Shown here piece after piece: positions 253 to 59,807 of a DNA stretch of 59,807 nucleotides. The notes below the pieces were generated by a model. That model saw nothing but the letters and a program-made list of their open reading frames with translations. It was not told the DNA's origin and did not search any database. Every line of letters starts with the position of its first letter. The first letter of the stretch is position 1. The translations under genes and the position numbers were made by a program. The stretch is from IMG/VR virus record IMGVR_UViG_3300045988_174840; one strand, written 5' to 3'. This DNA is from a virus.

Positions 253-726
253 CTATAAGAAATTTTTTAATACTTCCATGATATTGTTTACATCAAAACT
301 ATTTTTGCCCCACTCTTTTCTATTGCGTTCCTCGTCATCAAAAAGCCATCCCTTACAATCAACGACAGTACTTTTTGGTGTACCATAGTTTACAATTTTG
401 ATTTCATCCCATTCAATACTAGGCAAGTGTTTTTCAAGCCATGCAAGTTTTACACTTGTTACCGCCGTATTATAAGAAGCTGACCCGCTTTTACTTAACC
501 AGCTTACAATACCGATTCTATAGCCATTAGCTTGTAACTTGTGAAGCACTCTTGCGAAAGCTGAAAAATTGAAAAGCGGTTTTGCTACTTTGTATGGTGT
601 AGTATCTTCTTTTTCCAAATATGCTAACCAGTTTTCCACGCCGTAGAAATTAGCAAGTGTGCCGTCCATGTCAAAATAAATAGTTCCCTTTGTGTTCATC
701 ATTTCTTTAATTGTATTATTCATCAT
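253..726 (-). CDS. HAD-superfamily 5'(3')-deoxyribonucleotidase-like hydrolase
   Basis: Track ORF 253..738. HAD motif I FDMDGTLA (DxDxT) lies near the N-terminus. The track start is TTG; the first ATG (MMNNTIK) at 726 follows an AAGGGAAGGA ribosome-binding site. Confidence 0.6.
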   Translation of the reverse strand: MMNNTIKEMMNTKGTIYFDMDGTLANFYGVENWLAYLEKEDTTPYKVAKPLFNFSAFARVLHKLQANGYRIGIVSWLSKSGSASYNTAVTSVKLAWLEKHLPSIEWDEIKIVNYGTPKSTVVDCKGWLFDDEERNRKEWGKNSFDVNNIMEVLKNFL

Positions 727-844
727 AATATCTACCAATCCTTCCCTTTTTGATTATCGCAAGTGCTTTGCGATTGACCGACCAATGATTATGTGAACCT
801 TGCTTTGTTTCTGTTTTTTAAGTTTAATGTCCTTCGACAAGTAT

Positions 845-873: not shown

Positions 874-1170
874 ATTTATTTTTTATTGTGCAAAGTGATG
901 AAAATTTTACATAAAAATCATAGTATTTTTGTTAAAATGTACAAATGTAGAAAAATAATGCGGATTTAGGCAGATTTTTGTGCATTTTGCTATCTTAAAT
1001 ATCACATATTGTGTTTCTGCGTGTCAAAAAAGGTATGATTTTTTATTAAAATTTCGTCACTTTGCACAAGGTGTAGAAAATCTTAGCATTATTTTATTAA
1101 ATTTTGTACATTTTGTACACCATGTCAAAAAATGGGATTTTTTTAATTTATTTTTTGTGCAAATTGCCTA

Positions 1171-1200: not shown

Positions 1201-1245
1201 AAAATTTCGGGGTGCCCCGACCCCGAACGGAATTCGTCTACTTCC

Positions 1246-1274
1246 ATTATAGCATACTCGAGCCACCTTGTCAA
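1246..1274 (-). promoter_or_regulatory. consensus promoter P2 on the minus strand (TTGACA-17-TATAAT), left arm of an inverted repeat
   Basis: Reverse complement of 1246..1274 reads TTGACA, a 17-nt spacer, then TATAAT. It is convergent with P1 across the 1208..1219 hairpin. Confidence 0.65.
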
Positions 1275-1332
1275 GAGAAAAAATGCACAAATTTTAGGAT
1301 AAAAATTTTGAAAAATTTGTGCATTTTTTCTC

Positions 1333-1361
1333 TTGACAAAATGTCTCAACTATGCTATAAT
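1333..1361 (+). promoter_or_regulatory. consensus promoter P3 (TTGACA-17-TATAAT), right arm of the inverted repeat
   Basis: Exact hexamers with a 17-nt spacer. The predicted transcript starts in the GC-rich hairpin 1366..1398, which contains the perfect palindrome GCTCGCGAGC. Confidence 0.7.
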
Positions 1362-1445
1362 GGAAGGCTCGGCTCGCATGGGCTGCTCGCGAGCCGGCTA
1401 TTATAACACATTTTCCGCGACTTGTCAACCCCTTTTAAAAAATTT

Positions 1446-1522
1446 TTTTATTTTCGTCATTTTGCATAAAAATAAAATTCAGCATTTTGCACAAATTTTA
1501 TTTTCGTCATTTTGCATAAAAA
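1446..1522. repeat. two copies of a 27-bp direct repeat TTTTATTTTCGTCATTTTGCATAAAAA, 50 bp apart
   Basis: Identical copies at 1446..1472 and 1496..1522. A related copy (TTTCGTCACTTTGCACAA) sits at ~1052..1073. Confidence 0.8.
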
Positions 1523-1549
1523 AACAAAAGCCTAAATTATATAGGCTTT
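1515..1549 (-). terminator. Rho-independent terminator for minus-strand gene 1568..1774; may also stop plus-strand transcripts from P1 and P3
   Basis: Hairpin AAAGCCTA-AATTATA-TAGGCTTT, followed on the minus strand by TGTTTTTTTATG. Confidence 0.65.
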
Positions 1550-1567
1550 ATCATTACTCTTATTAAG

Positions 1568-1774
1568 TTATTTAGTATTACATTTACATTTTGCTTCTGT
1601 AATAATTTCTGTCTGATTAATTTCTGTATTGCTATTGTTATTAAAAAAATGGTCTGAGCCTTTTGCTAAAAAAACTATTATAGTTGCTAGAATCATTCCG
1701 ATTATAAGAAAACCAATTAGACCATTCAAATCTCTTCTAAATTCTTCATCTGTTGGGGCTTTTTCTTCTCTCAT
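1568..1774 (-). CDS. small membrane protein (68 aa, one transmembrane helix)
   Basis: Track ORF with the hydrophobic segment LIGFLIIGMILATIIVFLA. Confidence 0.45.
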   Translation of the reverse strand: MREEKAPTDEEFRRDLNGLIGFLIIGMILATIIVFLAKGSDHFFNNNSNTEINQTEIITEAKCKCNTK

Positions 1775-6005: not shown

Positions 6006-6412
6006 GCGTTTATTTATAGTATTTTTATTCGTCTTAATGCATATTTATTTATGTATATTTATTCACATTGCTAGTTAGCTTTACATATTTTATATTTATA
6101 TCCTTTTATAAATTTTATAAATTAAATTATAAAATAAAATATAATATATCAGTTATTGCATTGTTTTACTTAATATTTATTTAAGCATATCTTTCTTATT
6201 ATACTATTATGTTATTCTATTATAACTATTATAAGACAAGAGTCTTACGTTGAATACACTATTATTATTATTGTAACACTTCTATAAAAGTAATTACATA
6301 ATATAAAATATTATTATACTTATACTTTGTATGTATTGTTATAGTATAATATTATTATACTGTTATTATTATTATTATTATTATCTTTCCTTTATCTTAA
6401 GCTTAATCTCTC

Positions 6413-6441
6413 ATTATAACACCTTTAGCTCATTCTGTCAA
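6413..6441 (-). promoter_or_regulatory. consensus promoter (TTGACA-17-TATAAT) reading leftward into the 6000-6400 AT-rich non-coding block
   Basis: Reverse complement reads TGTCTATTGACAGAATGAGCTAAAGGTGTTATAATGAGAG. The -35 lies within a TGTC-N4-GACA palindrome. Confidence 0.65.
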
Positions 6442-6720
6442 TAGACATTTTACACAATTTTTTCTTTTGATTTTCGTGCAGATTGACCATTGACATTTCT
6501 TGTCTATTGACATTTTGTACAAAAATCAAATTATATTTTTGTATACTTTTACCATTGACAGGACTTGTCAATAGACATAATGCACAAAATTTTCCTTGCA
6601 TTTTTGTGCAATTTTACCTATTGACAAACTCATTTTAGGAAAATATCTTTGTGCATTTTTTACAAAAATTTAGCCAAAAATTTGTGCATTTTGTCTATTG
6701 ACAGGCTTCTCGGAGCGTTG
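6420..6720. repeat. cluster of 7 YTATTGACA sites in both orientations, including two TGTC-N4-GACA palindromes, interleaved with TTTGTGCA motifs
   Basis: CTGTCAATAGACA at ~6436 and ~6566. CTATTGACA at ~6503, ~6618 and ~6695. CCATTGACA at ~6487 and ~6553. Confidence 0.75.
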
Positions 6721-7261
6721 CGAAAGTATACGCTCCGATGGTAGATGGCAAGCTACCAATAGCCAATAAAATTCTAATCTTCTTGCTTTATTTTAATTAT
6801 TTAAAGAATTTATTTTATTAGTTTAACTCTTTCTCCTCTTTATTTAAAATAATGTGTTCAAAATCCTTCTGAACAAAAAACATATCCTCTTTGGAAAATG
6901 ATTTGAAAAATTATTTGTTAGGCGGTGTTTTGTTGCTTCTTACTCAAAAGAAAAGACCAATCTACAGACCATACCCAAACATAATACCCGGGCTATATTA
7001 AAGGATTAAAATTTTTTACTTTTATAAAAAGATAGTGTTCTCCACAATTCTCTCTCCAAAAAAATTTTTAAATCTAAAAATTGAAGAAAATGAAGAAGAA
7101 AAAATTGAAATAATTCTCCTTCCAAAAATTTTAGAATCTAAGAATCTAAAATAAAAACTTTAAGGATTCTAAATATTAAAAAATTTTCTTCTTCTTCTTC
7201 TTTAAAAAATGCGTGAGTGTCAAGTTAATCTCCGAAATACGTTTAAAAGCTTAGTAATCAT

Positions 7262-7980: not shown

Positions 7981-9138
7981 ATGACACCAATAATAATAGA
8001 AGATGAAGCTTTTGAGGAGAATATTTTAGAAGAAGAAAAAACAACAGAAAAACAAATCAAAGAAGAAAATATACAAACTACTATTAAATTAGATTATTCT
8101 TTAGAGACTCCTGAAGAGCGGAATGAATTAGTTAAAAAAATTATAAATAATACTCCTTCTGAGCAATTAACACCTAGATATTTAGAAATATTGTCAGATT
8201 ACATTATTTTTGCTATGGATAAACAAGAGCGGAAACAAAAGCAAATATTAACTGATAATCACATGGTCACAGTTAACAAAAGAGAAACTTCTTTTGAAGG
8301 ATTAGTTGGTCGCTTAGAGAATGGCGAAGATGGCATTTATAATATGATTGCTAATGATAAGAATATTATCTTTACACCTAAATTTCAAATAACTCAACAA
8401 GATATTGCGGAAATCCCCGAGTTAAAGCAACTTGTAGACGCGATTGCGGAAGTTGAAAAAGCTGAGAAAAAAGCAGTTGGTAAAAAGAAATTTTTATTAA
8501 AAAAGCAACTTATTGCTATGAGACAAGATCAATATGTAATTAGAAGTGCATATAAGCCGCCAATTTATTGTATGAACGCAATTAAAAGTTTTAGCAAAAT
8601 TGATTTTGATGAAAATGTTTCTATTAGCGGAGATGATGAAATTGAAGATAATAGCTTAGTTTCTTTTTTTAATCCTAAGCACGTATCTGCGTTATTATGT
8701 AACTATTCCCGCCTAAAAGAAGATGCATGGGGAAAATTCTATAGTGATTCATACTTTTTAATGGAAGATTTAGATACATTAATAGAAAAGACTTTAAGAG
8801 ACAGCTATCCAATGTATTATGACCTCTTGATTTATAAAATAGATGGAAAACAAAATCTTGAAATTCAAAGCCTATTGAATCAAAAGCATAATGTAAAACA
8901 TTCAGTGGAATATATATCATCTTTGTGGCGGAATAAGATACCTAAGCTATTGTCAGAGCAAGCTCAGGAAGACTACTTAATTTGGTATTATACGACTCAG
9001 AAGAAGGGAAAATGGAAAAAATGTTCCCGCTGTGGGGAAATCAAATTAGCTCATAATAAATTTTTTTCAAAGAATAAGACAAGCAAAGATCATTTTTACA
9101 GTATATGTAAATGTTGTCGAAATAAGAAAAATAAGTAA
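7981..9138 (+). CDS. hypothetical protein with a C-terminal Cys4 zinc ribbon (385 aa)
   Basis: CSRCGEIK...CKCCRNKKNK at the C-terminus. First gene of the late operon. Confidence 0.55.
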   Translation: MTPIIIEDEAFEENILEEEKTTEKQIKEENIQTTIKLDYSLETPEERNELVKKIINNTPSEQLTPRYLEILSDYIIFAMDKQERKQKQILTDNHMVTVNKRETSFEGLVGRLENGEDGIYNMIANDKNIIFTPKFQITQQDIAEIPELKQLVDAIAEVEKAEKKAVGKKKFLLKKQLIAMRQDQYVIRSAYKPPIYCMNAIKSFSKIDFDENVSISGDDEIEDNSLVSFFNPKHVSALLCNYSRLKEDAWGKFYSDSYFLMEDLDTLIEKTLRDSYPMYYDLLIYKIDGKQNLEIQSLLNQKHNVKHSVEYISSLWRNKIPKLLSEQAQEDYLIWYYTTQKKGKWKKCSRCGEIKLAHNKFFSKNKTSKDHFYSICKCCRNKKNK

Positions 9139-9150
9139 AGGAGGCTAATA

Positions 9151-10350
9151 ATGAATTATACTTGCAACAAATGCGGAAAATCAATGGATGAAATAAATTT
9201 TTATACATATAAAAATGGTAAAAAAACAGAATTATGTAAAAAATGTTTAACTATGCATATAAATAATTTTGAACCTAATACTTTCCTATGGGCATTAGAA
9301 AAGATGGATGTTCCATATGTTCCAGAAGAATGGAATATTTTAAGGGATAAAGCCTATGCAAAAGATCCTTATAAAATGAATGGGATGTCAGTATTTGGAA
9401 AATATCTTTCTAAAATGCGGCTAAAACAGTGGAAAAATTATAGTTGGGCAGATACAGAAAAGATTGCTCAAGAAAAAGAAAAAAAGACTCAAGAGGATCT
9501 CGAACAACAGAAAAAATTTGAAGAGAGTATGAAGCAACAGCTTGAAAAAGGGGAAATTTCTGAAGCTGAATACAAAACAATGGTTTCTACCCCTACTCAG
9601 AACGCGGAATTGGCGGTAAAAGCTCCTAAGAATGAGATTGGAACTGACAATTTTTATGATGAAAATAATTTTATAAGCGAGGATGAATTAATTGATCCCG
9701 CCGCGGAATTAACTCAAGAAGATAAGATTTACTTAGCTATGAAATGGGGACGTTTATACAAACCAAATGAGTGGGTTGAATTAGAGAAAAAATATGAAGA
9801 GATGACTAGTTCTTTTGATATTCAAGATTCAGATACTACAGGAACTTTAATTCTTATTTGTAAAACCTATTTAAAGATGAATCAGGCGATCGATTGCGGT
9901 GACATGGATGGATACCAGAAATTATCTAGAGTATACGATTCATTGCGTAAATCCGCAAAATTTACAGCCGCACAAAATAAAGAAGTAAAAAGTGATTTTG
10001 TAGACTGTATTGGAGAGATGGTTGCCTATTGTGAAAAAAATGGCGGTCAGATTCCAAGAATGAAGATAGAGGCTCCAAATGATATAGTAGATAAGGTTAT
10101 CATGGATTTAAAAGAGTATACGAGATCATTGATTTATGATGATAAATCCCTTGCTCAACAGATAGAAAATTATATTAAGCAGAGAGAAAATGCGGATGCG
10201 ATGAAGAAAGATAGAGAAGAAGCTAAAGAAAAAGGCTATAATCAAATAGAATTAAAAGATAGAGATTATCAAACTTATTTTGACAATATTGCAAAAGAAA
10301 AAGAAAATGATGAAAAAATTTATATAGGAGAGGATGAAGACTTTATATGA
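9151..10350 (+). CDS. hypothetical protein with an N-terminal zinc ribbon and a charged coiled-coil; terminase small subunit cannot be excluded
   Basis: CNKCGKS...CKKC in the first 35 aa. It lies immediately upstream of, and overlaps, the large terminase gene. Confidence 0.45.
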   Translation: MNYTCNKCGKSMDEINFYTYKNGKKTELCKKCLTMHINNFEPNTFLWALEKMDVPYVPEEWNILRDKAYAKDPYKMNGMSVFGKYLSKMRLKQWKNYSWADTEKIAQEKEKKTQEDLEQQKKFEESMKQQLEKGEISEAEYKTMVSTPTQNAELAVKAPKNEIGTDNFYDENNFISEDELIDPAAELTQEDKIYLAMKWGRLYKPNEWVELEKKYEEMTSSFDIQDSDTTGTLILICKTYLKMNQAIDCGDMDGYQKLSRVYDSLRKSAKFTAAQNKEVKSDFVDCIGEMVAYCEKNGGQIPRMKIEAPNDIVDKVIMDLKEYTRSLIYDDKSLAQQIENYIKQRENADAMKKDREEAKEKGYNQIELKDRDYQTYFDNIAKEKENDEKIYIGEDEDFI

Positions 10351-55905: not shown

Positions 55906-57322
55906 TTATTCTCCTTCCATACCATATCTAACATGCTCTAGTTTCATATCTGAACCATTGACGTCAATAATCTTGTAGAGCTGATGGGTAGGGGTATGTT
56001 TATACGATTTAGTCTGAAATGTATCTCCACGCCTAAACCCAGTACACATTACTTTTGTTCCTCTTTGAAACCAGCCTTTTTCCATAACTTTTTTAGTTCC
56101 ATCTTCTTGCTTTTCAGAAATTTGTCTCCCAAACATAGCAAAGTAATCTTTTGTAAATTTTACATTAACAACTCCAGAAGTTGTTAATAATGATATTGAA
56201 GAACGAGCATCATTTTTACTGATTACAGTGCCAATGATTTTATAAGTCTTATAAATAGGGATTTCTTTTCCATTTCTTTTGAAAAAATAATCTACAACAG
56301 GCTCTTCGGGTAATTTAGAAAAATCTGAAATTCCATACTTTAAAGTATCAATATTTATTAATTCATGTGGATGATAATAAAAACATAAGCTTTCCATTTC
56401 CCACGCGGAAATATTTCCTTTAGCATATTTATTCCAAGAGTCAAGAAATAAAGCCTCATTAAATTCTTTTAATACTGTCTGTTGATTCTCTTTAAGCCAA
56501 TCTCTAGCTCTATCCATGCCTTTTTGATACTTTTTATCCCATTTGTTTTGTAAAATACAAACGCATCCGTTTATCACTTCAAGGTCTTCCATATCGTATC
56601 TTTGATTGTAGAATTTTTCACAAGCATCATCAAAGACATAATATTTTCCAACTTTTTTCTCAGTTTTTAGATACTTATTAAAGAAAAATAATCTTTTCAT
56701 ACTATCTAAAGAAGGTGGAATTAAGTCTTTTTGAATTAAACCATTAAAGTTTTGTAGCGTTAATTTCTTTTTTGGTTCACTAACAACAGACAGATAATAT
56801 ATCATTACAAGCACTCTTGGTTCAACATTTAATTCTTTTGCCCATTCTAATTCCAGTTTATCAAAAGCTCCGCTCTTTATTAAGGAAATCATTGCAGATT
56901 TATTTAAAGGACATCTTATCATAAAGTCTTTAATGCTTTTATATGGTCTACCAGAAAAAATCTGCTCAATAATTGGTGCACCTACATTACTCAATGCTTT
57001 CATTCCAAAAAGAATTTCGTTGTTTTCAACATCTGGCTTAAAGCTATAGTCAGATTTATTTATATCAACTAAAGAAATTTTTATTCCTCTTGATAAAATA
57101 TCTCCAATAGCCTTAGCTATTTTACTATAATCCGTAGATTTTTCTTTCTTTTTACTTTCTTCTGTTTCTTCTTCATTTTCAATATTATCTTCTTCTAAGG
57201 CTCCACTATTTACAATTAAACACGCGGTATTCCAATAGATAGGATTCCATCTTGTGGCTATGTATATAGTTTGAAATCCTATGAAAGAGTAAGCCAGGGC
57301 ATGTATGCATAATTTAAAATTA
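55906..57322 (-). CDS. dnaE: DNA polymerase III alpha subunit (DnaE-type), C-terminal exon or segment
   Basis: The open frame extends upstream of track ORF 55906..57003 to the stop at 57334. It encodes ...FNFKLCIHALAYSFIGFQTIYIATRWNPIYWNTACL (cf. DnaE GYGFNKSHSAAYALVSYQT..HYPAEFMAA). The HhH region ALSNVGAPIIEQI...SLIKSGAFD and a C-terminal OB-fold follow. Confidence 0.7.
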
Positions 57323-58539
57323 CTGACTATTTTTTACAGACGTTGTAGTGAGATTTTGGCTTTTCTCTTGTCTGCACACTATTTCCCAAAACGTATCAAT
57401 AGTTTCAGTACTCCCCGTCTAACCAGGGATAGTCGATACAACATTTTTCTTTTAATAGATTTATTTATTATCTCTAAGAGGGTATTTATATTTTTCTTTT
57501 TTATGAGAACGTCCTGCGTTAATATTTTTAATTGTTGCATAGCTTTTATTCCATTTTTTTGCGATATCTTTTAAAGATAAATCTGTTTCTAAAATATCTT
57601 TTATAATACCTTGAATCCAGATTTCATTTTTAGCTTTATTACCACCTTTATCACAAAGAGGGTAGTTATCCTTATCACTATAAAAATATTTTCCTGTATT
57701 TATCATAGATAAAAATCCAGCTGATTTAATTCCAAAATCTTCTTGAATTGTTTTATATTTTTCTCCGCTTTTAATTCTATCTTTTATTTCTCTAATTTCT
57801 TTTTGAGAAAAGCGGCTTTTAGAATTTTTCTTTAAAGGATAATCAAACTCTTCATTAAAATAATTTGTTCCAGTATTTATATTAACTAAAAACGTTCTTT
57901 TTAACTTAGGAAAATAAATTTTTTCAATATCATCATATTCTTCATCATTCATTAGACGATTTTGGATATCAATAATTTCTTCTTTTTTAAAGAGTTTAGA
58001 TCGGTTTAATTTTTCTTCATACGTTAAAGGTTTTCTTTTATATCCTTGTCCGCCTAAAGTAATATTATATCCATTTTCATCTTTTAAAGAATGATAATAT
58101 TGAATAAAATAAATTTCTCTTTCGTCAATATATTCTTGAGATTCTCCATCAGCAATCTCTTCAAGAATATCAAAATTAAAATTATCCCAACCATATTTTC
58201 TTATGGCTGCGTGAAATGGCAAATTATAGCCAGAAGTTTTTTCATTAAAAGACTCACTTTTATGTCCATTTTTTCTTTTTTGAACATTATTAGTTTGTCC
58301 GATATAAATTTTACCATTTGTTTTATTTGTAAATTTATAAATATAGTACATAATATTCTCCTTATACATTGTTTTACTATTCTCATGTATAACTGAAAAA
58401 TACTATACCTCTATTAAAGAAATTTGTCACGAGATTTAACCCTCGTTAGCAATTAAAACCATATTTGCCAAATATGTAAATGTTTTAATTACCCCACTGA
58501 TAAGTGGTTAAGTGTGTAAGCACCATTCACACAATGCTA
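57323..58539 (-). other. ~1.2-kb intervening sequence interrupting dnaE; candidate group I intron carrying a homing endonuclease gene
   Basis: The upstream frame ends in-frame with ...GYSF then SIV-stop. The downstream frame has no nearby ATG or ribosome-binding site. The proposed junction, with the 5' exon ending in T and the intron ending in G, restores GYSFNFKLCIHALAY. Confidence 0.5.
57461..58351 (-). CDS. GIY-YIG homing endonuclease, free-standing inside the dnaE intervening sequence
   Basis: N-terminal YYIYKFTNKTNGKIYIGQT...KRKNGH (GIY-YIG motif). Perfect AAGGAG ribosome-binding site 6 nt before the second ATG at 58351; track ORF starts 6 codons earlier. Confidence 0.8.
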   Translation of the reverse strand: MYYIYKFTNKTNGKIYIGQTNNVQKRKNGHKSESFNEKTSGYNLPFHAAIRKYGWDNFNFDILEEIADGESQEYIDEREIYFIQYYHSLKDENGYNITLGGQGYKRKPLTYEEKLNRSKLFKKEEIIDIQNRLMNDEEYDDIEKIYFPKLKRTFLVNINTGTNYFNEEFDYPLKKNSKSRFSQKEIREIKDRIKSGEKYKTIQEDFGIKSAGFLSMINTGKYFYSDKDNYPLCDKGGNKAKNEIWIQGIIKDILETDLSLKDIAKKWNKSYATIKNINAGRSHKKEKYKYPLRDNK

Positions 58540-59807
58540 AAGCTATATCCCATCTGCGGACCTATGCCATATTTCCATACATAGTCTCCGAGTTCTTTTC
58601 TTTTAGCTTGTTCAATAACCTTCTTTTTCAATTCTGGAATTTTACTCATTTGTTTTTTACCAACAATTTTTCTCGCGGTGTTGGCTTCAGATAACTTAAA
58701 ACCGCAAATATCCTTATCCATTAACATACTCATTAATTGTTCTTGACTTGGCGGAACACCATAAGACTTTAAGAAATAAGGTTCTAATGTTTTCATCTCT
58801 TGAGGAGATAACCCCTCTCTTCTCATTTCTTGATACCAAAGATCAATATTTTTTTTATATCTTACATATTTTTCCATTGGCGTTTCTTGACCTTTTTCAC
58901 TAGTCATAAGTCTCATTAATCCATTAGCATCTGACATTTCAATTATTGAGGCTGGCTTAATTTTTTTTGCAGCCTGACTGCCTACATCGCTATCAAATTG
59001 AAAAATATTTAAAACTGAGTTGTTTTGCAGTGCTTTCCAACATTTTTTATCTTCGATAGGTAAAACACTTGGATGAAAATATTTTTCATACACTTCTTTT
59101 AAAGATAAATCTGATTCAATTTCATTATTAGCCTGTAGTAATTTAATTGTTTCTGCTAATTTATCCTGGACTTCAGTTACTAAGAAGTCATATTTTGTCA
59201 TACCTGCTGCTTCGCACATATGAAGATCCCATTGCGTAATAATTTCTCCTTTAGGAGTCCGCATAAAACATCCAAATTCATATGGGTCTTCATCAAAAAG
59301 GATTACTCCAGAAGCATGAGAACTCCTTTTGTTTACTAACCCTTCAATAGCAATCATAATATCTAATAAGCCAGGATATTTTTCTACCTCATTAGTAAAC
59401 ATCTTAATAGGCTTTCTATCTTTATCTGGGTTACCATTAATGGCATCTGATAAAGACCATAAAAAACCTCTTTCACTTGGAATTAAAGAAGATAAAAATT
59501 GAGCAGTGTCAACATCAATTCCGTCTGGATACTCTTCACTTCTATATCCGCGACAAGCAGTTAAAATAGTTGATCGAGTACCTTCAGTTCCAAAAGTGGC
59601 TATCAACGTACATCCTAAATTTTTTCGAGATAAAACATCAATATCTTTTTTAAAATTTTTTCCGCGTTCTTCCTTTATTTTCTTTAAAATTAAAGGTCTT
59701 TTACTTGGACTTAAATCTAAATCTATATCTCCAAGCTCTATACGCTCTTTATTTAAATATCTCCAGAAAGGAAGCTCCCATTCAATCGGATCTAGTTGAG
59801 TAATTCC
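58540..59807 (-). CDS. dnaE: DNA polymerase III alpha subunit (DnaE-type), upstream exon or segment, 5' partial (continues beyond the window)
   Basis: Track ORF 58527..59606 (IATFGTEGTRSTILTACRGY...) stays open in the same frame to the window edge at 59807. It ends at the conserved GYGF position. Confidence 0.7.

Follow-up and report, generated by a model that had tools for sequence, protein, structure and literature searches.

Putative operator copies beside head-on consensus promoters in a gene-less early region of an uncultured gut phage

The gene-less hub, its promoters and its hairpins

The analysed DNA (IMG/VR record IMGVR_UViG_3300045988_174840, 59,807 nucleotides; this whole stretch is called the window) derives from a large phage genome whose GC content is 30%. 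Small early genes occupy the minus strand from ~7.8 kb down to position 1, each with a consensus promoter and a terminator. They are followed by structural genes on the plus strand, including one for a tape measure protein of 2843 aa, and at 50-60 kb the minus strand carries genes for replication and nucleotide metabolism. The encoded DNA polymerase belongs to the YorL type (PolIII-alpha-like) and is 45-47% identical to those of Enterococcus phages of 134-142 kb and of SPbeta. The source phage is an uncultured siphovirus of gut Firmicutes with a genome of roughly 130-140 kb, and the gene-less stretch studied here, the hub (about 880-1560), belongs to its early region. A hint to the host comes solely from a single metagenome-assembled genome (MAG) that bears the label 'Clostridia bacterium', and no DNA match to positions 750-1800 was found in cultured phages.

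A homologue of the dNMPase (5'-deoxyribonucleotidase) next to the hub is encoded by 27 IMG/VR loci, mostly from contigs of roughly 75-196 kb. The dNMPases of the close relatives L001, L002 and L019 are 92-96% identical to that of the window, those of the more distant relatives L003-L017 (including the L005 group) 83-85%. A first-pass annotation had proposed that the interval 1362-1560 is a noncoding RNA of ~190 nt, transcribed from promoter P3, and that its repeats might act as a small RNA or as a decoy for a factor binding a TTTTGCA(T/C)AA motif. The features of the hub are listed in Table 1.

Table 1. Positions of the hub features and of neighbouring elements in the window
Feature	Position	Strand	Remark
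dNMPase (5'-deoxyribonucleotidase) gene	253-738	-	Neighbour of the hub
Further operator copies 5' in the hub	886-902, 977-989, 1053-1069, 1103-1115		Motif search
Promoter P2	1171-1200	+	12/12 consensus; class-A operator at 1154-1166
GC hairpin of the P2/P-a pair	1206-1227		Terminator-like on the minus strand
Inverted repeat I1	1241-1366		Repeat search; 55-nt arms, 91% complementary
Promoter P-a	1246-1274	-	12/12 consensus, opposing P2; class-A operator at 1279-1291
Putative class-A operator of P3	1316-1334	+	TTTGTGCATTTTTTCTCTT; abuts and overlaps the -35 box, centred near -43
Promoter P3	1333-1361	+	TTGACA-N17-TGcTATAAT, sigma-A-type; 12/12 consensus with TG extension
GC-rich hairpin between P3 and P-b	1367-1398		Fold; begins 6 nt past the -10 box of P3
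Promoter P-b	1400-1428	-	TTGACA-N17-TGtTATAAT; 12/12 consensus, opposing P3
UP-like A/T tract 5' of P-b	1429-1449	-	Putative, read from the sequence
Putative class-B operator, copy 1	1453-1470	-	TTTATGCAAAATGACGAA on the minus strand; within the 27-nt repeat 1446-1472
Putative class-B operator, copy 2	1478-1495	-	TTTGTGCAAAATGCTGAA; repeat and motif search
Putative class-B operator, copy 3	1503-1520	-	Within the 27-nt repeat 1496-1522; missing in L001, L002 and L019
Intrinsic terminator of gene 1568-1774	1527-1549	-	Terminator scan; at best weak for plus-strand transcripts
Gene for a 68-aa protein	1568-1774	-	One predicted TM helix; in a ~250-nt cassette missing in L001 and L019
Second operator cluster	6511-6693		Five motif matches, in a 1.25-kb noncoding stretch

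By consensus matches, the four 12/12 promoters of the hub form two head-on pairs, each around a GC hairpin; about 0.2 sites of the P3 kind are expected by chance over the whole window (own estimate). The start site of P3 was placed from the position of its -10 box. Between the -10 boxes of P3 and P-b lie 38 bp, which are taken up by the hairpin 1367-1398, the predicted 5' end of both transcripts. The promoter P3, pointing against the early genes and with a GC hairpin at its predicted start site, is present in the sequence as annotated before, while the opposing promoter P-b had been missed. P3 is kept in L001, L002 and L019, and promoters of its type occur across the clade, where all 16 distinct sequences are on the strand opposite the dNMPase gene. 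L002 has the hairpin in exact inversion and L019 has lost part of it, so that the precise sequence of the hairpin is not constrained. In the inverted repeat I1, the operator-promoter units of P-a and P3 stand back to back as copies of each other, and a transcript spanning it folds with -101 kcal/mol (z = -15). Head-on pairs of consensus promoters flanking GC-rich hairpins also recur in relatives, where the sequences of the hairpins differ considerably.

No gene lies immediately downstream of any of the four hub promoters. P2 and P3 have no ORF downstream, P-a runs at once into the terminator-like hairpin, and P-b is separated from its first gene by about 650 nt of noncoding DNA; to arrive at the dNMPase operon, its transcript would have to read through the terminator-like hairpin at 1206-1227. 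The dNMPase operon has a promoter of its own, which looks weak by its sequence.

The two identical 27-nt repeats that had been noted at 1446 and 1496 are exact (1446-1472 and 1496-1522) and belong to a longer pair of 32 nt with 94% identity. Between them, at 1474-1494, lies a third and diverged unit, which results in a period of 25 nt, and as tandem repeats the window contains 1.6 copies of a 50-nt unit where relatives have one unit. The hubs of L001, L002 and L019 are nearly identical to that of the window but contain just the first two operator units. The RNA proposal had counted on the repeats being conserved in relatives; the second 27-nt copy is missing in all three of these genomes. Compared with L001 and L019, the window has one additional 25-nt unit, and the ~250-nt cassette with gene 1568-1774 begins directly past the left terminator arm that the genomes share. 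It follows that only this genome has the 3' part of the proposed RNA and the 'shared terminator'. By this comparison, one of the three operator copies at 1453-1520 is a recent 25-nt duplication adjoining the cassette insertion.

The arms of the hairpin at 1527-1549 (AAAGCCTA...TAGGCTTT) are followed by TGTTTTTTTA on the minus strand, as opposed to the T-poor ATCATTACTC on the plus strand, and the terminator scan called the hairpin on the minus strand only. Of the earlier view that it ends both transcripts, the part concerning the minus-strand gene stands; given the scan result and the plus-strand tail ATCATTACTC, an end of the P3 transcript at this site is presumptive. In L001, pairing of the homologous terminator is kept via a compensatory C/T...G/A change, and the corresponding terminators of L001 and L005 look more bidirectional. 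In L003-L017, the P3 homologue has the same operator and promoter, followed by a different GC hairpin and terminator hairpin, and its predicted RNA has a length of about 75-80 nt and lacks the repeats. Taking the window and the relatives together, P3 is followed by a hairpin within 75-190 nt and by no conserved ORF. The only ORF in the P3 transcript of the window starts at ATG 1378 within the hairpin stem; L001 has ATT in place of this codon, L019 has lost the site by deletion and L002 carries it in inverted form. It is concluded that, as previously stated, the transcript contains no plausible ORF. Ten orthologous P3 RNAs yielded one compensatory pair only, their sequences being too similar for real covariation.

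The repeated motif as a candidate operator

A 13-nt motif, TTTGTGCAWWWTG, is contained in the minus strand of each 27-nt repeat. When at most one mismatch was allowed, 14 matches to TTTGTGCAWWWTG were identified in the window, compared with 1.4 expected, and this number was never reached in shuffled sequences. Thirteen of the 14 are in two noncoding clusters at 977-1520 and 6511-6693. A 17-nt form of the motif is present in five copies at 886-1519, one of them inverted; elsewhere in the 59.8 kb it has no close match, the sole other site (28590) differing at three positions. The motif occurs in both orientations and also 5' of P3, outside any P3 transcript. The search elsewhere in the phage, which the first-pass annotation had suggested, was positive for the motif, both at 6511-6693 and 5' of P3; the motif is not confined to the transcript.

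The motif has a density of 0.5-1.5 per kb in ten representative relatives. It is lacking in L022, L024 and L026. Of 119 motif sites in all, 57 have a TTGACA box within 60 nt, and in 43 of these 57 the distance from the start of the motif to TTGACA is 16-18 nt, which places this type of site, class A, near -43 and overlapping the -35 box. The relatives' sequences of class A can be written as TTTGTGCAwwTTkyCTaTTGACA-N17/18-TATAAT. Class B (TTTGTGCAAArTGAyGAAwwT) forms tandem arrays 25-26 nt apart or inverted pairs, and class C is a perfect 19-bp palindrome, TTTGTGCAAwTTGCACAAA. Classes A and B can be understood as a conserved left half-site to which a degenerate right half-site is attached. The exact 19-bp palindrome was identified in 69 IMG/VR stretches, where 1-3 are expected by chance (own estimate). 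The dyad symmetry, the independence of orientation and the fixed spacing to the -35 box together indicate a protein-binding site in DNA and not an RNA motif. The copies are therefore treated as putative DNA operators, which are most likely bound by a dimeric DNA-binding protein encoded by the phage or by the host. There is good support for the earlier suggestion of a factor binding the TTTTGCA(T/C)AA motif.

The motif was also compared with known binding sites. DnaA boxes were considered and rejected: a few motif copies fit a relaxed consensus, but TTWTNCACA occurs 12 times in the window, compared with 8.2 expected, and the hub contains one such box (1485-1493). Three of the five class-B copies of the window contain TGACGAA, which resembles a Spo0A box; the other two, and many copies in relatives, have TGATGAA, TGCTGAA, TGCCGAA or GGAGAA at this place. 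The operator motif as a whole matches neither the 0A box, nor parS, nor the DnaA box.

Candidates for the binding protein were sought among the early proteins, which gave no Pfam or PHROG match and no HTH or repressor domain; Pfam and PHROG searches with 30 proteins of the window and 10 of the loci yielded no DNA-binding domain. No homologues of MrpR, YonR, YonO or AimR were found in the window or in L001-L147 (tblastn for MrpR; the DNA searched covers less than half of the genome). The ORF family found most often near operators (79 loci) encodes proteins of about 125-137 aa without a Pfam match that look winged-helix-like by eye. An operator lies at most 200 nt upstream of just one of its 129 members, and this family was dismissed as regulator, since its placement relative to the operators is unconvincing.

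The palindrome is not limited to this clade. It occurs four to five times in each inverted terminal repeat, of roughly 290 bp, of 14-kb phi29-like podoviruses, which encode a polymerase of the protein-primed type and a phi29-like capsid protein. In the sampled DNA, these phages and the present clade have no protein in common. AD70P2, a cultured phi29-like relative from Amedibacillus, lacks the motif. Metagenome stretches with the palindrome number more than 120; in some of them integrase or VapE genes are adjacent to it, and some are bacterial contigs of up to 725 kb. What flanks it in the metagenome contigs varies between integrase, VapE and housekeeping genes, and no shared theme emerged that would point to a host regulon. 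Since the palindrome is present in unrelated phages and mobile elements without a common flanking theme, its binding protein could be host-encoded or horizontally shared.

Across the clade, an operator is repeatedly combined with a consensus promoter and a GC hairpin into one unit, with hairpin sequences that are unrelated to each other. The first 30 transcribed bases average 61% GC at 81 distinct operator-linked promoters, as against 31% at 519 other promoter-like sites, all taken from the window and 27 loci. In single-promoter units, 35 transcribed strands fold better than their complements and 18 fold worse, with 82 versus 51 G-U pairs; the units are not independent samples, and this sense-strand folding bias is a weak hint at selection on the RNA level, that is, that the hairpin RNAs matter themselves. 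In L023, an array of other palindromes adjoins an operator cluster.

A probable control hub and the alternatives to it

Combining the motif with the arrangement of the promoters, it is considered fairly probable that the repeats form an operator array beside convergent strong promoters and are not the working part of a small RNA. The interval 1362-1560 would, on balance, be the right-hand portion of a gene-less transcription-control hub at about 880-1560. The three copies at 1453-1520 would constitute an array just 5' of the UP-like tract of P-b, while at P3, P2 and P-a a variant of the putative operator overlaps the -35 box. All four promoters have a perfect consensus and P-b has, in addition, the UP-like tract, so that an activator seems unneeded; this and the overlap with the -35 box suggest that binding at the operators would most probably shut the promoters off. 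P3 and P-b are predicted to fire head-on, and since their -10 boxes are 38 bp apart, which makes simultaneous occupancy impossible, the presence of one RNA polymerase should exclude the other. The two transcripts would be complementary over their 5' GC hairpin, and transcriptional or antisense interference may thus be built in. A counterpoint to the operator-array reading is the spacing of 25 bp in the array, which does not correspond to complete helical turns. The computed results are the statistics of the motif, its symmetry, its spacing and its conservation, as well as the duplication; protein binding, repression, interference and the transcript ends are interpretations.

P3 probably makes a short noncoding RNA. 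The only conserved feature of this RNA is the presence of a 5' hairpin; the repeats would be passengers in it, as part of the array of P-b. What remains of the sRNA or decoy proposal is P3, a probable short transcript and a factor binding the motif, and what falls away is the role of the repeats as an RNA element. It is very unlikely that the P3 transcript is itself functional, be it as a trans-acting sRNA, as an RNA decoy or as an antisense RNA to the 68-aa gene in the manner of a type I antitoxin. The repeats lie partly outside the transcript, are found in both orientations and are palindromic in relatives, and L001 and L019 keep P3 without the second 27-nt copy and without the 68-aa gene. 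Homologous P3 RNAs of 75-190 nt have no sequence in common beyond the presence of a GC hairpin, their 3' two-thirds being different, and the plus strand has no T-run terminator. A consensus promoter, a 5' hairpin, the lack of a conserved ORF and a hairpin on the 3' side nevertheless agree with a functional RNA, as does a fold that is modestly better than that of shuffled sequence (z = -2.5). The transcript also converges on the gene for a protein with one TM helix, the terminator being common to both, and the weak sense-strand folding bias of the single-promoter units points in the same direction. At the gathering score no Rfam match was obtained in the window, relaxed E-values gave generic long-hairpin matches only, and searches for CRISPR-repeat families (Rfam) and tRNA-like genes (ARAGORN) found nothing. 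Two specific models were rejected: a repeat-RNA antitoxin or decoy of the ToxI type, because the repeat is single in relatives and no partner gene is conserved, and a type I toxin-antitoxin system of the bsrG/SR4 type, because gene 1568-1774 is missing in L001 and L019, which both retain P3. Another explanation, quite unlikely, is that the hub is a cis-acting DNA site, bound by a host protein and primed or activated by transcription from its head-on promoters, such as a replication origin, a partition site or a pause in genome entry like the T5 injection-stop.

This would fit a hub that recalls the untranslated repeat regions of the T5 left terminal repeat, the contigs of several relatives, which end 5-6 kb past the dNMPase gene, and the array of other palindromes at an operator cluster of L023. 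Replication of phi29-type phages starts at the genome ends, and it is the inverted terminal repeats of the 14-kb phi29-like phages that are filled by the palindrome; that these phages have no protein in common with the clade in the sampled DNA favours a host factor. The fixed spacing between operator and -35 box, however, favours promoter control, and relaxed DnaA boxes are not enriched, with a single one in the hub. Moreover, the minimum of the cumulative GC skew and an extreme AT-rich tract are located at 6-8 kb and not at 1-1.5 kb, and no contig contains a terminal-repeat copy of the hub region. Recombination could likewise have shaped the locus, as the window and L001 cease to be homologous precisely at the junction of operator and terminator, where a cassette was inserted and an operator duplicated, and the hubs of close relatives are inversion, deletion and insertion variants. 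PeSLs, composite promoter/terminator motifs, are found at indel boundaries in the same way (PMC4122927, PMC2839356). The view that the units are mobile promoter-terminator cassettes, that is, PeSL-like recombination points, with the repeat pair as a functionless scar, is still highly improbable: the operator motif is conserved far beyond what neutral scars would be, the exact -35 spacing is held across distant relatives, and a recombination point and a regulatory site can coexist.

With the operator-array reading preferred, TTTGTGCAAwTTGCACAAA becomes a sharply defined candidate operator for a regulator of early transcription in uncultured gut phages, and the recurring head-on promoter architecture around GC hairpins is a second testable outcome. 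The operator and promoter sequences are usable parts for reporter assays in gut Firmicutes, which are hard to study. Identification of the protein that binds the operator would show whether several gut phage families sense one host signal, comparable to phi29 and Spo0A. A further-reaching proposal, that the unit is a previously undescribed module of large gut-Firmicute phages whose operator is read by a host protein reporting the state of the host to several families of phages, with hairpin RNAs that are possibly functional, is rather unlikely. If these 5'-hairpin RNAs were functional, they might serve, for example, as replication primers or as sponges for host nucleases or defence proteins. 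If taken as a further phage sRNA candidate, the locus would be a minor finding on weak evidence.

Comparison with known systems

The control regions of phi29 contain sites for host factors, namely Spo0A boxes and parS. The likeness to the present motif is that of a short site which would be common to unrelated phages with similar hosts and clustered near early promoters or genome ends. The left terminal repeat of T5 has untranslated repeat regions, and dmp is among its few consistently conserved genes (10.1101/866236). Like the hub, the T5 injection-stop region is gene-less and repeat-rich, and it is situated in the same terminal repeat as dmp (10.1101/866236); the DnaA boxes that define it are, in contrast, not enriched here.

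In T4-type phages, PeSLs, which are repeated elements of a promoter and a stem-loop, are found among small early genes at indel boundaries (PMC2839356, PMC4122927). Here too, units of promoter and stem-loop recur along the early region, with a cassette and a duplication exactly at the junction of hub and terminator. PeSLs, however, have no palindromic operator and are not head-on, and their hairpin is the terminator of the upstream gene, whereas the hairpin of the hub is at the start of the transcript.

Face-to-face promoters are known from phage 186 (pR and pL; PMC3675496, PMC5001618). In phage 186, as in P2 (Pe and Pc), strong promoters converge within tens of bp and have regulator sites at them or adjacent to them, so that interference between the promoters is inherent (PMC3675496, PMC5001618, PMC7498355), which resembles the pairs of the hub. 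Each promoter there drives a lytic or lysogenic gene set, whereas none of the promoters here leads directly into a gene. The pairs described here are also closer, with 36-38 bp between the -10 boxes, have a GC hairpin in between and occur several times per genome.

In SPbeta, early promoter regions contain the operator SPBRE, which is bound by the master repressor MrpR/YopR (PMC10516654). SPBRE was derived from seven MrpR-bound promoters as CAAATACAAAwAATATGTATA, which is unrelated to TTTGTGCAAwTTGCACAAA. The promoters described here differ in being mostly gene-less, followed by a GC hairpin and often head-on, and in that binding is inferred from sequence. SPBRE sits immediately 5' of the -35 box at aimR, yonX and yonT, and both systems have in common short repeated elements of early promoters, often directly 5' of the -35 box, in large phages with a YorL-type polymerase. 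By this analogy, SPBRE and MrpR are regarded as the closest functional analogue of the putative operator and its predicted binding protein.

The GC hairpin and the predicted minus-strand transcript

The promoters P3 and P-b face each other across a GC hairpin (1367-1398), and this hairpin differs between the closest relatives of the virus. In L002 the 30-bp hairpin is found in exact inversion, and in L019 a 13-nt deletion lies within it; in both relatives the flanks are identical. Both changes look as if a quasi-palindrome had been rearranged by template switching.

On the minus strand, a P-b transcript ending at the terminator-like hairpin 1206-1227 is predicted to be ∼195 nt long (1197-1394). 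This RNA is predicted to fold at -101 kcal/mol (z = -15) into a near-perfect stem of 55 bp, and such a long-stem RNA would likely be a substrate for RNase III. The arrangement is limited to the group to which the window and L001 belong.

Gene cassettes and promoter classes

Next to the hub, the gene-less putative transcription-control region, lies a cassette (1560-1810) consisting of a minus-strand gene (1568-1774) with its own terminator, which encodes a 68-aa product with one predicted TM helix. The cassette is missing from L001 and L019, where the hub directly adjoins the homolog of window gene 1821-2021. Several early genes have a near-identical promoter-leader in common, TATAATAACATTATCAAATGAAAGAGAGG (2018-2045, 2938-2965 and other early-gene leaders). 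Since the promoters with this leader lack the operator, at least two promoter classes are present in the early region.

At the other end of the window, a GIY-YIG homing-endonuclease gene (57461-58369) interrupts the gene for the YorL-type DNA polymerase (55906-59606, minus strand), which thus consists of two separate ORFs (58527-59606 and 55906-57003).

The noncoding stretch 6010-7260

A stretch of 1.25 kb at 6010-7260 is devoid of ORFs and contains the second operator cluster of the window, together with the features listed in the table. The cumulative GC-skew minimum of the window is located near 8 kb. Judged by sequence features, 6010-7260 would be a better origin candidate than 1362-1560.

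Sequence features in and around the AT-rich part of the noncoding stretch
Feature	Position	Strand	Context
Extreme AT-rich tract	6010-6400		Downstream of the 12/12 promoter at 6441-6413 (minus)
Promoter, 12/12 match to the sigma-A consensus	6441-6413	minus	Upstream of the AT-rich tract 6010-6400
YMWTTGACA, seven copies	6440-6710	both orientations	

Operator-like sites and neighboring genes in other contigs

In the part of L001 that lies beyond the window's left end, another operator hub is flanked by the genes (8092-8505 and 9768-10169) of two paralogs of ∼135 aa each. By eye, the C-terminus of these paralogs looks like a winged helix. Their family is the commonest ORF family near operators (79 loci) and had no match in Pfam.

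The 19-bp palindrome was also identified in three bacterial contigs of 90-725 kb with 26-28% GC (L210, L281, and L237), always in a single conserved intergenic setting: TGTCTACAT...ATGTAGACA repeats flank the palindrome, and downstream of it lies a gene for a 395-aa protein, for which Pfam gave no match. Several more operator-like sites are found nearby, and the locus may belong to an element that has integrated into the genome of a candidate host.

Three IMG/VR contigs of ∼13-14 kb (L195, L196, and L174) are phi29-like podoviruses, encoding a type-B polymerase and a phi29-like capsid protein. They end in inverted terminal repeats of ∼290 bp, each with 4-5 copies of the palindrome, some of which adjoin small GC hairpins. 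In L023 (4460-4640), about six GTTAGC-N4-GCTAAC palindromes follow one another with ∼20 nt spacing directly next to an operator cluster, in a pattern reminiscent of an iteron or partition-site array.
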